A stretch of 12,923 nt of DNA. Source: a virus. Taxonomy: Duplodnaviria; Heunggongvirae; Uroviricota; Caudoviricetes. This document shows positions 5,384-11,549 of the stretch, in pieces. The notes below the pieces were generated by a model. That model was not told the DNA's origin, did not search any database, and saw only the letters and a program-made list of their open reading frames with translations. Within the stretch, counting starts at the first letter, position 1. Each line of letters begins with the position of its first letter. Location of the stretch: positions 1 to 12,923 of IMG/VR virus record IMGVR_UViG_2534681651_000004. The stretch is one strand, 5' to 3'. The translations under genes and the position numbers were made by a program.

Positions 5384-5916
5384 TTTTCCTCACATATGTC
5401 ATATAGTAAAGGATTATATATACCGTTGTTTTGGACGCTCAAACAGCGAATCAGATCAAATAAAACGCACATTTGTTAACATTTACACAAAGGCTGCGTG
5501 GAATATTCTGAAAGAATATCCATAATGTGGAGAGAATCTATTGAAGTGCATGGTGCCGGGTGCCTCCCGGTGAATTCAGTACCAGCACCTGAATCCGCGA
5601 TTATCCCATATACCTACTCGCTGATTGCCCCTCCGCACAGGGGGATTCACCATGCCAGTTTCTTTTAACAAACTCCCCGCAAACCAGAGAACAGTCAACC
5701 GCCTGAATTGTGAAGTATTTAAAAATTTCTCCCGCTAACTGATACCCGGCTAACAGTCTGGCGTTTTCTTTTTCAGCAACGGGAAAGCAACAACCACCAC
5801 ACCCGCCACCAGCACACCGTCAGCCAGCACTGACATTATCCGGCTGCTGCAATGCCATTCACAAAAACAGTAAGCAATCACTTTTTACCGTAACAGGTGA
5901 TAATCCAGATATGTAT

Positions 5917-6380: not shown

Positions 6381-6457
6381 TGGCGCGCTGTACTGGATTC
6401 GAACCAGTGACCGATTGCTTAGAAGGCAATTGCTCTGTCCGGCTGAGCTAACAACGC
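6381..6457 (-). tRNA. tRNA-Arg (anticodon UCU, reads AGA), phage argO-like
   Basis: Reverse complement GCGTTGTTAGCTCAGCCGGACAGAGCAATTGCCTTCTAAGCAATCGGTCACTGGTTCGAATCCAGTACAGCGCGCCA folds as a cloverleaf: 7-bp acceptor stem, anticodon stem ATTGC/GCAAT, loop CTTCTAA, T-loop TTCGAATCC, encoded CCA. Confidence 0.85.
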
Positions 6458-6557: not shown

Positions 6558-6633
6558 TGGTGGCCCTTGCTGGATTTGAACCAGCGACCTGGCGATTATG
6601 AGTCGCTCGCTCTCACCACTGAGCTAAAGGGCC
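6558..6633 (-). tRNA. tRNA-Ile2 (anticodon CAU, lysidine type; ileX/ileZ-like)
   Basis: Reverse complement GGCCCTTTAGCTCAGTGGTGAGAGCGAGCGACTCATAATCGCCAGGTCGCTGGTTCAAATCCAGCAAGGGCCACCA closely resembles recalled E. coli ileX, including the CUCAUAA anticodon loop, and has an encoded CCA. Confidence 0.8.
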
Positions 6634-9032: not shown

Positions 9033-9422
9033 TTACCTCCAGATGCGTTGCTGGAATGTGTGGGACGGACGCGGTGGGCGTTCGGAGTAAGGCAATCTGA
9101 CTGAGATTATCCAGTGACGGTAGTCGAGGCTAAGGGCTTTTTTAACCTCGTATCCGCGCCTGCGGTAACACTGAATTATCCATTCAGCCTGCTCTTCAGT
9201 GCATGGTGGATGCTGGAACCAGTCCGATTTGAATGCATGAAAACGCCGTCCGCACCTGCTGGCAAAGACGGCAGAATCATCAGAATTGTGTAATTTGGTA
9301 TCGTGCGCCATCGGTTGTCTCTGCTGGCGCAGCAGGTGCCAGTTGTTCAGGCTGGCGTATAAAGTATAAATAAACTGGTTCCAGTGTAAAGCCCCTACAT
9401 TAATGGAATAAAAGTCAAACAA
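9033..9422 (-). CDS. Hypothetical nin-region protein (start uncertain)
   Basis: ORF-track start is a TTG with no SD; the first ATG is at 9311 (92 aa). Stop lies 1 nt before the start of the downstream DUF968 gene. Confidence 0.45.
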   Translation of the reverse strand: MFDFYSINVGALHWNQFIYTLYASLNNWHLLRQQRQPMAHDTKLHNSDDSAVFASRCGRRFHAFKSDWFQHPPCTEEQAEWIIQCYRRRGYEVKKALSLDYRHWIISVRLPYSERPPRPSHTFQQRIWR

Positions 9423-9576
9423 CAGATTGTTGGGATAAACACAACGCTTATTATTAAAAGCGATTAGATAAATTAAATTTTAATGTTATGCAATTTTACC
9501 AGATCACCATAACATCTCGTTTGAAACCACCGAAACAACAACCATATCAATATTGATTATGTTAAAGTGAGTAAAT

Positions 9577-9663
9577 ATGGAAAACAACAAATCTGCACAT
9601 TACGCTCCTTTTTTATCTGTGATACTTTTTGTTTTATGCTGTGTGTGGGCATTATTTTTATAA
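9577..9663 (+). CDS. Candidate small hydrophobic peptide (28 aa), convergent with hok
   Basis: MENNKSAHYAPFLSVILFVLCCVWALFL has a polar N-terminus and a 17-residue hydrophobic stretch. Modest SD (GTGAG), AT-rich upstream region. Below the ORF-track size cutoff. Confidence 0.3.
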   Translation: MENNKSAHYAPFLSVILFVLCCVWALFL

Positions 9664-9671
9664 AAATATTT

Positions 9672-9701
9672 ACAGATAAAATAAACCCGCCGAAGCGGGT
9701 T
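9672..9701 (-). terminator. Rho-independent terminator of the hok transcript
   Basis: Minus strand reads AACCCGC-TTCG-GCGGGTT followed by TATTTTAT, about 70 nt after the hok stop. Confidence 0.7.
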
Positions 9702-9769
9702 AAGTGCGGGTGCATTGAGGATGCCTGACACATCAGAGGTGGCGAGGGATTTCTCCCTCGCCAAGTCTC

Positions 9770-9925
9770 TTACTCCTCAGGTTCGTAGACTGTGAAGACA
9801 GCGACCTCCGTCTGGCCGGTTCGGATTCGTACCTCGCAGAGGTCTTTCCTCGTTACCAGTGCCGTCACTATGACGGTTAAACAGATGACGATCAGGGCGA
9901 TTAACATCGCCTTTTGCTGCTTCAT
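9770..9925 (-). CDS. hok: Hok-family type I toxin (HokD/RelF-like)
   Basis: MKQQKAMLIALIVICLTVIVTALVTRKDLCEVRIRTGQTEVAVFTVYEPEE is near-identical to recalled HokD. AAGGAG SD upstream of the ATG at 9925. The 70-aa ORF-track version (start 9982) is an in-frame upstream extension, possibly mok-like. Confidence 0.9.
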   Translation of the reverse strand: MKQQKAMLIALIVICLTVIVTALVTRKDLCEVRIRTGQTEVAVFTVYEPEE

Positions 9926-10136
9926 AGCCTGCTTCTCCTTGCCTTTCGGCACGTAAGAGGCTAACCTAGATTTGCCGTTCATAGATTGAGCCTCAGATTA
10001 ATGTTAAGCGTCTTGCAGGACGCGTAATGTTAACTGGGGCTTTTCTCTATCTGCCTTTGGTGTTCATGCCTGAGACAGATAGCCTCAAGCACCCGCAGCC
10101 ATTCTACTTAACTCCCGTCACCTGGCCAATATAAAA

Positions 10137-10226
10137 TCAATCAGAAAGGCGATCCATAAGAACAACAGCAAGACAATAAATTGCCATTACAGCTGCAATA
10201 GCCAGCGCACATTTGAGAACCAGCAC
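10137..10226 (-). CDS. Candidate small hydrophobic peptide (29 aa) with a strong SD
   Basis: AGGAGG, a 5-nt spacer, then a GTG start; encodes MLVLKCALAIAAVMAIYCLAVVLMDRLSD. Not on the ORF track (below size cutoff). A 17-bp perfect palindrome lies about 50 bp upstream. Confidence 0.3.
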   Translation of the reverse strand: MLVLKCALAIAAVMAIYCLAVVLMDRLSD

Positions 10227-10275
10227 GACAACCTCCTGTATTGGACGTACACCAGTCCTGATAAATATGAGGCTC

Positions 10276-10292
10276 TCTCATCATTGATGAGA
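10276..10292. promoter_or_regulatory. 17-bp perfect palindrome TCTCATCATTGATGAGA (candidate operator)
   Basis: Perfect 8-1-8 inverted repeat between the AT-rich 345-aa gene and the hok unit, upstream of the small ORF 10137..10226. Confidence 0.4.
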
Positions 10293-10511
10293 TACAACTA
10301 TTGGGTATAGTTTCTGTGATTTTGTTCTGTAGAAATGGAACACAACAACCAGTAACCACCAGCGATTCTTTAAATACGCCAAATCCGACGCAAGCTAACC
10401 TTCTAGTCCGCTTTGGGCGAAGACCGGACGTTCGATAGGTGTGAACTAGTAACTTTAAAAACATTTAATTACCAGTAAAAAAACAAGAATATACTATCAC
10501 TTTTCCAATTT

Positions 10512-11549
10512 TTAATTACCCTTATCAATTTTAAGAAATACATTTCCAATCTCATCAGAATAATCCTGTATTATTTTTGAAATGACGGCATGATCAATGG
10601 TTGGTTTTAAGAATAAAAGTGTCACAGTAATCTGCATCAAACTAATAGCAGTAGCATGGGCTGGATCAGCCATTCCTGAATCACTTTGCCCGACCAATAA
10701 TATATCATCACCAGTTTCACAGAGACCAAGCCTATTTCTCATTGCCTTGGAACCGGTGTGTACATTCTGACTCGCCCACTTATAATAAGGGCGCATGTGT
10801 TCTAACTGAACATCTTTCTCAATAGCTCCAAACCCCACTTTATTATGGTTAGGGAAAATATAAGATGCCCACCCATAATTATCTGCATATTTTTTGCCGT
10901 ATTTTTTTATTAATAGATCAAATTGAACTTTACACTCAGCTATTTCTTCAATAGTTGGACCTTTTGCTTCTAACCGGTGCTCGTACTTTTTGTGTTCCAA
11001 CATTCCAGTATATGAATCAACCACTTCATGGTAGTAAAAGCGCTCAGCACACTCTTTTCCATGCTTTGCTATAAACATAGCTGTGGCTGCTACCTCATGA
11101 AGTGCTCGCCATCTCGCTTGGGCAGCATCTGCAAATCCATTCTTTAAGAGACACAAAATTTCGTTGGCGATGTGGCAAGCTCTTGCGTGATGCCGAACGA
11201 CTAAATCAAAAACCACATCCTCTTCAGAGGCAGCTTGTGGTCTATAAGAACGATTGAACTCTTCACCGGACTCCGTGCATATCACTATAAGTGTTTCGAG
11301 CAAATCAAAAGCCTCTGCCCATCTTGAAATATTTCTCTCAACAAATTCATCACAAAGAGAACGATGTTCTCTAAGCATTGCATTGGCCGAGCCAATAAGA
11401 GATTTTTTAACGACAATGGCTATTTTGGGAATTAGGTTATTAATTTCTTTTTCGATATCAGCGTCACCAGATAAATCAAGCCTCTCTTTTAAAAGGCTGT
11501 CTATGTGCTCAAGCAAAATATTATGAAAAGTATCCATGTCATATCTCAA
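10512..11549 (-). CDS. AT-rich foreign hypothetical protein, candidate defence/abortive-infection protein (possible HEPN-like Rx4-6H motifs)
   Basis: 345-aa ORF with an ATG start, visibly lower GC than its neighbours and flanked by AT-rich intergenic DNA. Contains RHHARACH and RWRALH (Rx4-6H-type) motifs. No confident family assignment from memory. Confidence 0.7.
   Translation of the reverse strand: MRYDMDTFHNILLEHIDSLLKERLDLSGDADIEKEINNLIPKIAIVVKKSLIGSANAMLREHRSLCDEFVERNISRWAEAFDLLETLIVICTESGEEFNRSYRPQAASEEDVVFDLVVRHHARACHIANEILCLLKNGFADAAQARWRALHEVAATAMFIAKHGKECAERFYYHEVVDSYTGMLEHKKYEHRLEAKGPTIEEIAECKVQFDLLIKKYGKKYADNYGWASYIFPNHNKVGFGAIEKDVQLEHMRPYYKWASQNVHTGSKAMRNRLGLCETGDDILLVGQSDSGMADPAHATAISLMQITVTLLFLKPTIDHAVISKIIQDYSDEIGNVFLKIDKGN

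Follow-up and report, generated by a model that had tools for sequence, protein, structure and literature searches.

The locus lies in a 12,923-nucleotide stretch of viral DNA, which we call the window. Its minus strand carries the hok toxin ORF and the longer mok ORF, together with the full set of R1-type hok/mok/sok sequence elements: promoter, tac, ucb, mok Shine-Dalgarno (SD) sequence, dcb, mok, Hok, fbi and terminator (Table 1). The locus is a complete member of the well-known small toxin/antisense-RNA "host killing" type; with the same cassette in most E. coli genomes and a close relative already tested by experiment, it is real but ordinary.

Table 1. Genes, RNA elements and predicted transcripts of the hok locus. 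Positions are those of the window; A3 is the transcript alignment described in the text.
Feature	Position	Strand	Basis and remarks
Putative hok mRNA promoter TTGGCC-N17-TAGAAT	10101..10129	minus	Promoter scan; predicted +1 around G10096/G10094
Predicted full-length hok mRNA, ~420 nt	9675..10096	minus	From the promoter-implied start to the terminator U-tract, both ends predicted
tac element GCGGGUGCUUGAGG	10083..10096	minus	Paired to fbi at full length and to ucb when the RNA is truncated
Predicted nascent metastable hairpin	10066..10092	minus	Folding of the first 40-45 nt gave -16.9 kcal/mol, with tac nt 5-15 paired to nt 21-31
ucb (anti-SD) GCCCC	10036..10040	minus	Pairs with the mok SD (full length) and with tac (truncated); invariant in A3
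mok Shine-Dalgarno GAGG	9991..9994	minus	8 nt upstream of ATG 9982; invariant in A3
mok ORF	9770..9982	minus	70 codons, in frame with hok, common stop codon; ORF list
dcb AGCCUC	9957..9962	minus	Truncated fold: paired to the mok SD region; invariant in A3
hok toxin ORF	9770..9925	minus	51 aa, MKQQKAMLIALIVICLTVIVTALVTRKDLCEVRIRTGQTEVAVFTVYEPEE; SD AGGAG 9939..9935; PF01848
3' UTR G+C-rich hairpin GGCGAGGGAGAAAUCCCUCGCC	9741..9762	minus	In both folds; compensatory changes in A3
fbi element CCUCAAUGCACCCGC	9706..9720	minus	Pairs with tac; also kept in K-12 hokD without a tac partner
Intrinsic terminator AACCCGC-UUCG-GCGGGUU + U-tract	9674..9701	minus	Terminator scan; common to K-12 hokD
Putative Sok promoter TTGCCT-N17-TAACCT	9939..9967	plus	TTGCCT 9939..9944, TAACCT 9962..9967; supported by homology
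Predicted Sok RNA, ~71 nt	9974..10044	plus	Coordinates transferred from the sokW annotation in AF125520

The hok start is the second in-frame ATG, at 9925, and the stop codon lies at 9772..9770. The Hok protein matched the Pfam family PF01848 (HOK_GEF) over profile positions 1-42 of 42 (E = 2.6e-22), and its match to the NCBIfam Hok subfamily was weaker and under the cutoff of that model. An earlier note on this DNA had proposed that the in-frame upstream ATG at 9982 could serve as mok. The results confirmed a 70-codon ORF at 9982..9770 with its GAGG SD 8 nt before the start, a layout that is the same in the annotated mokW and mokC. Codon 47 of Hok (UAC, Tyr47; 9778..9793, minus) stands in a CUACGAA context that is nearly invariant across the homologues in A3. 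This context is similar to the anticodon loop of tRNA-Arg(ACG) that TadA recognises. The introduction of a preprint (bioRxiv 10.1101/2025.08.07.668861) mentions reports that Tyr is recoded to Cys by A-to-I editing in hokB, with 'a similar phenomenon' in hokC, hokD and hokE.

The leader matched the Rfam model RF01794 ('sok') on the minus strand at 10094..9920, over model positions 1-157 (its full length), with 110 bits against a gathering score of 59. RF01794 is a 157-nt model of the hok-sense strand that runs from tac to the hok AUG, and annotated Sok RNAs are 57-71 nt long and lie on the opposite strand. Because the model matches the hok-sense strand, the match attests homology of the leader, not an antisense transcript, and it should not be taken as placing the antisense RNA. 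An E-value Rfam search of 9400..10560 yielded as extra matches only sub-threshold noise (ceN48, rsmX, Phe leader, fungal SRP). When a 501-nt query was compared with RefSeq, at least 15 records were 100% identical and at least 38 were at least 99% identical, among the matches listed. All listed matches bore the annotation 'hokD: type I toxin-antitoxin system toxin HokD'. The RefSeq annotation of the region covers the hokD CDS only and leaves mok, Sok and the mRNA elements unannotated.

The neighbouring genes fit a Qin-like lambdoid prophage (integrase, dicB, ydfA, DUF977, DUF5677, hokD, DUF968, RusA, Q, tRNAs, lysis genes and cspI). The cassette is located in the early-right region of this prophage, between a variable cargo gene, here DUF5677, and the DUF968/RusA/Q genes. 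Downstream of the Q antiterminator gene we observed an Rfam match to the STnc100 sRNA (111 bits; 5494..5684) and two tRNA genes (6384..6457 and 6561..6633), all on the minus strand; the tRNAs are annotated in RefSeq as Ile and Arg in the matching genome, and this layout after Q is typical for lambdoid prophage late-region leaders. The gene 5' of the block formed by a small ORF and hok varied by genome. It is a DUF5677 gene here (10512..11537, minus) and encodes DUF4209, AIPR-family or hypothetical proteins elsewhere (loci L059-L063), and in K-12 the same place is occupied by relBE/ydfV/flxA. The position looks like a variable cargo slot in Qin-like prophages, possibly for defence genes.

The small ORF is an unannotated, hydrophobic frame of 29 codons (MLVLKCALAIAAVMAIYCLAVVLMDRLSD; 10137..10226, minus) with a GTG start and a strong SD (AGGAGG at 10237..10232), and it ends 8 nt before the -35 hexamer of the hok promoter. 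It was uninterrupted in 8/8 compared copies, with 7/11 variable columns at codon position 3, and it was more conserved than the 200 nt upstream (12% vs 34% variable columns). The segment was found in 1708 of 5426 E. coli genomes and carried no annotated feature in the sampled records; Pfam and NCBIfam searches of the ORF gave no match. It may encode a real small membrane protein. A 107-aa ORF at 10141..10464 was dismissed as a gene, since it had no family match and indels break its frame in phage mEp460_ev081. The roughly 300 nt upstream of the hok promoter folded no better than shuffles (z = -0.9) and gave no sign of a structured RNA.

Unlike the Qin hokD of K-12, the locus has no relBE partner, as the earlier note had stated. 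A tblastn search of the window with RelB and RelE returned nothing below E = 0.69. The K-12 gene (relF, the third gene of relBEF) belongs to a prophage of this family and occupies the corresponding position there, likewise upstream of the DUF968(ydfU)/Q genes, and its HokD differs from the window Hok by one residue. Its homology begins 14 nt upstream of the hok ATG, however, and the 97% identity extends over 9939..9683 only (hok SD, ORF, fbi and terminator). The promoter, tac, ucb, mok start, dcb, Sok promoter and sok gene are missing from K-12 hokD, with relBE in their place, whereas the window has the full leader. K-12 hokD is co-transcribed with relBE (PMC3598666), and the integration of relBE truncated an ancestral hokD ORF of about 70 codons to 51 codons (PMC6379469). 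By this sequence comparison, K-12 hokD is a derived, rearranged form. The earlier description of the window copy as an autonomous hok-type unit stood: it is a self-contained mRNA unit, K-12 hokD being the truncated version fused to relBE.

To call this arrangement unusual was nevertheless an overstatement. Of 5426 complete E. coli genomes, 3845 had the intact-leader form (71%; counted when a place in the genome covered at least 80% of the 501-nt unit), and this form is annotated (hokD; mokW/hokW/sokW in phage 933W). The K-12 relE-hokD junction was found in 1173 genomes. Up to 10 places per E. coli genome matched the query, partial matches counted.

The closest annotated relative in the phage collection is hokW/mokW/sokW of the Stx2 phage 933W and the Sakai prophage Sp5 (AF125520), with about 93% nucleotide identity over 417 nt from the -10 region through fbi. 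Both loci contain tac, ucb, the mok SD, dcb, fbi, an in-frame 70-codon mok and a 51-aa Hok, and their Sok hairpins and Sok 3' ends are the same. Upstream of the terminator there are 29 mismatches, of which 8 cluster in 9969..9983 (Sok 5' tail and first mok codons), and the Hok C-terminus reads …FTVYEPEE in the window and …FVDYESEK in 933W. The -35 hexamer of the 933W hok promoter and its terminator are unrelated to those of the window, and the 933W copy sits elsewhere in its phage genome. The annotation of hokW-sokW dates from 1999, and its validation followed in 2021 (Takada et al. 2021, PMC8621323). In Sp5, HokW was neutralised when sokW was expressed from its native promoter, and HokW toxicity was released when that promoter was mutated (around the -10 element, according to the figure legend). 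Northern blots detected both RNAs, and deletion of hokW-sokW halved phage release after mitomycin C (PMC8621323).

The cassette was also compared with more distant systems. The R1 hok/sok (parB) locus and its IncF relatives agree with the window in element order, in Pfam and Rfam family and in the three predicted conformations, and an R1-like copy on a Klebsiella plasmid keeps tac/fbi through compensatory changes. The DNA of R1 and the window can be aligned only in short stretches, and R1 hok/sok is on a plasmid whereas the window copy is in a prophage. Hok of R1 and HokW, the 933W relative, are 44% identical (PMC8621323). The closest chromosomal paralogue is hokC (gef)/mokC/sokC; the Hok of the E. 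coli hokC-type locus L026, identical to K-12 HokC, has 80% protein identity to the window Hok. Like the window and mokW, the hokC locus has a mok in frame with hok, whereas the annotated mok of hokB is in another frame, and its annotated Sok overlaps the mok start by 9 nt, the geometry that is predicted for the window. It differs in its chromosomal site outside a prophage, and in K-12 an IS186 inserted 20 nt downstream of hokC separates it from fbi. We also observed hokD-type cassettes of about 88% identity, with matching tac/fbi, on P1-like phage-plasmids of about 94 kb, where they adjoin an antirepressor-like gene. One of these is locus L009 (1501..1897 of NZ_CP117721.1, an IncY P1-like phage-plasmid). 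The hokD-type cassette therefore moves between lambdoid prophages and phage-plasmids.

We consider it very probable that a Qin-like lambdoid E. coli prophage here carries an intact type I toxin-antitoxin cassette (hok/mok/sok, hokD-type) and that the cassette works by an R1-like mechanism. A cassette with intact sequence could instead be a functionally silent relic that, whether transcribed and regulated or untranscribed, has no killing, stabilisation or lysis phenotype. Such silence has been argued for chromosomal hok loci, and the K-12 copies are all disrupted by IS150, IS186 or relBE and are thus dispensable. The chromosomal hokA, hokB and hokC, tested earlier, gave no post-segregational killing, as stated in the introduction of a preprint (bioRxiv 10.1101/2025.08.07.668861), so little killing phenotype may be found in the window copy despite the regulation described below. 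Against this reading, all regulatory elements and both ORFs are intact and are conserved with compensatory changes, 71% of complete E. coli genomes retain the cassette, and hokW-sokW, which is 93% identical, encodes a toxin that its Sok neutralises and raises phage release twofold (PMC8621323). A silent relic is therefore unlikely in our view, and we retain a working cassette as the preferred reading.

We infer promoter function for the TTGGCC-N17-TAGAAT sequence upstream of tac. It matches the sigma-70 consensus at 9/12 positions, its -10 hexamer TAGAAT and the sequence that follows are conserved in 933W, Tritos and mEp460_ev081, and its distance from the conserved 5' end GCGGGUGC is right. 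The terminator that the earlier note had placed after the Hok ORF was recovered by the terminator scan as a stem at 9701..9684 followed by UAUUUUAU, the U-tract. The full-length mRNA predicted between these ends folded with -179.7 kcal/mol.

It was also considered that most hok expression comes from transcription that enters from the early operon of the prophage upstream (through the DUF5677 gene and the 29-codon ORF), much as K-12 hokD is expressed with relBE. The upstream genes are on the same strand, the small ORF ends close to the -35 hexamer, and upstream there is only a weak terminator-like hairpin (3 G-C pairs, 10202..10183). The promoter match, the conserved TAGAAT and its spacing from the 5' end speak against such read-through, and the known switch needs tac at or very near the 5' end. 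Moreover, the conserved cassette begins at about 10114 beside unrelated upstream genes (DUF4209, AIPR and hypothetical proteins, and other contexts in 933W and P1-like plasmids), which points to a self-contained hok promoter. Read-through as the main source of hok mRNA is accordingly improbable, and transcription would start from the cassette's own promoter.

Sok would be expressed on the plus strand from a promoter that was located by homology. The region from -45 to -6, which includes both hexamers, is identical to that upstream of the annotated sokW of 933W, and it aligns with the regions upstream of the annotated 5' ends of K-12 sokC, sokB and sokE. The -10 hexamer TAACCT agrees with the consensus at 3/6 positions, and a generic promoter scan did not pick it up. 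The predicted promoter and RNA body are collinear with annotated sokW, sokC, sokB and sokE. The predicted Sok consists of a single-stranded 5' tail, a long hairpin and the 3' end GGGGCUUUU (-33 kcal/mol, z = -5.8). The annotated 5' end of sokW overlaps the mok start by 9 nt, as does that of K-12 sokC, and the overlap of sokB is 11 nt.

The earlier note had drawn a weak Sok promoter, TTCATA-N17-TAATGT. An antisense RNA driven by these hexamers would start near 10011. Both hexamers are present on the plus strand, at 9978..9983 and 9999..10004, but the spacer between them is 15 nt, the promoter scan was silent there, and the site falls inside the RNA annotated as sokW, sokC and sokB in the homologues. 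An RNA starting near 10011 would miss the mok SD and AUG, to which it has no complementarity, and would be without the single-stranded 5' tail. This start is highly improbable, and the homologous promoter, about 35 nt upstream of the TTCATA/TAATGT site on the plus strand, is the one that we adopt.

The patch at 9963..9990, which comprises the Sok 5' tail and the first mok codons, had 61% variable columns among seven close homologues, compared with 4-11% in the flanking leader elements, and no other part of the regulatory leader varied as much. Judging from this variability, the patch could set the specificity of Sok/hok pairing between paralogues. It is conceivable, although we hold the idea only tentatively, that the many hok/sok copies of an E. 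coli genome are kept orthogonal by diversification of this patch and that the window Sok would not neutralise hokW or other paralogues. If so, the window allele would be a distinct specificity class.

The two ends of the predicted mRNA pair with each other. In the MFE fold of minus 10096..9672 (425 nt), tac and fbi formed a duplex of 14 bp with one bulged U (G1-C391 ... G14-C377, i.e. nt 1-14 with nt 377-391), and the whole molecule had z = -7.6, with 0/100 shuffles folding as well. The complete hok mRNA unit with 5'/3' fold-back pairing that the earlier note had described, and the stable 5'-3' pairing expected from RNA folding, were thus both found. An exact string search agreed with the placement of the 3' segment GCGGGTGCATTGAGG at plus 9706..9720, and put the 5' segment CCTCAAGCACCCGC at plus 10083..10096, one position from the 10084..10097 given earlier. 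Pairing between the 16-nt 5' end and the 98-nt 3' UTR gave a duplex of -27.3 kcal/mol. Dinucleotide-shuffled 3' UTRs gave a mean of -16.9 (sd 2.3) and 0/1000 reached the energy of the real duplex; with the best of all 16-nt leader windows, the control gave 0/200. In two natural negative controls in which the leader is replaced, a relBE-type locus and K-12 hokD, whose fbi has lost its tac partner, the best fbi duplex reached only about -16 kcal/mol.

Covariation was assessed in 20 loci from one-genome-per-species contigs, phage 933W, a Klebsiella IncF plasmid and K-12 hokB, which together represent Escherichia, Kluyvera, Photorhabdus, Pantoea and the one Klebsiella plasmid. The set is a selected one and holds only loci in which the duplex scan detected tac/fbi pairing; hokC-type loci and some Kluyvera and Citrobacter loci, for which the scan gave other strong stems (e.g. 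terminators), were left out. The transcripts were aligned with MAFFT (alignment A3), in which the bulged Escherichia type and the Photorhabdus type, which has no bulge, are misaligned by one column over the distal half of fbi, and pairs were therefore counted per sequence from the duplex folds. The results showed that tac position 6 is a U-A pair in 8 loci and a C-G pair in 10, with one U-G and one mismatch as intermediates, and that position 14 is split evenly between G-C (10 loci) and A-U (10 loci). One double change was seen at each of positions 9 and 12, so that compensatory double changes occurred at 4/14 pairs in total. K-12 hokC, hokA and hokE were unusable as comparators, since IS186 or IS150 separates hok from fbi or from the leader, and a hokC 'fbi' obtained by duplex scanning was discarded because it lies within IS186.

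Because the shuffles, the covariation and the leader-less controls agree, we conclude that the tac/fbi pairing is real and under selection. The alternative that this inverted repeat arose by chance and does nothing structurally, for which its short length (14 bp) and nothing more can be said, is effectively refuted by the covariation, with double compensatory substitutions in distant genera, as well as by the 0/1000 shuffles and the pairing in the MFE fold, and it can be set aside as next to impossible.

The folding, which was done in silico and gives thermodynamic optima only, recovered three R1-type states in the model: a closed full-length form, an open truncated form and a nascent metastable form. 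In the full-length MFE fold, which was unconstrained, tac and fbi were paired and GCCCC (10040..10036) paired with GAGG (9994..9991). This corresponds to the R1 full-length mRNA, in which the tac/fbi stem closes the RNA and ucb sequesters the mok SD (PMC9841398). When the RNA was truncated at 9722 (375 nt), G3-U10 paired with A55-C61 (tac/ucb) and G103-G106 with C137-C140 (mok SD/dcb). In R1, the same tac-ucb and mok SD-dcb pairings follow 3' trimming of fbi, and the RNA becomes translatable and open to Sok (PMC9841398). The predicted open state depends on the truncation point. With the 3' end at 9712, the MFE fold stayed closed through an alternative pairing just upstream of fbi, which suggests that trimming must reach the 9762..9741 hairpin. 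In the processed (truncated) mRNA this hairpin probably serves as the protective 3' end, as does the corresponding 3' hairpin of R1 (Le Rhun et al.; PMC9841398). The nascent tac hairpin of the window copy matches the metastable structure described for R1 hok, which blocks co-transcriptional translation there (PMC9841398).

By analogy with R1, the window copy may operate as follows. A constitutive promoter (10129..10101) would give an mRNA of about 420 nt whose first 40 nt would fold at once, the metastable hairpin hiding tac. Once the 3' end is made, fbi (9720..9706) would pair with tac (10096..10083), and in this closed form ucb (GCCCC) would sequester the mok SD, mok and the translationally coupled hok would stay untranslated, and Sok would be unable to bind. 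Slow 3' exonucleolytic trimming to the 9762..9741 hairpin would then remove fbi and allow the tac-ucb pairing, with the mok SD paired to dcb in the target hairpin. The short-lived Sok of about 71 nt (plus 9974..10044) would bind the mok start region, leading to a block of translation and RNase III cleavage. If the supply of Sok ended, by loss of the element or by prophage induction, the stable processed mRNA would be translated and the 51-aa membrane toxin Hok would depolarise the cell. As for a biological role, which we infer, the cassette could help to retain the prophage, assist in lysis (as was shown for hokW-sokW) or act in defence by abortive infection.

These findings describe a textbook hok/mok/sok locus that is already known: it is annotated, and a close homologue has been studied experimentally. 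Their main yield is a correct annotation, with little weight as a discovery. The hokD (relF) of K-12 that serves as the textbook example is a rearranged minority form, and the intact-leader form dominates. Sok and its promoter are now correctly placed, which is of use in the design of probes or deletions. If the cassette acts like hokW-sokW, it would contribute to the lysis timing or the retention of Qin-like prophages.
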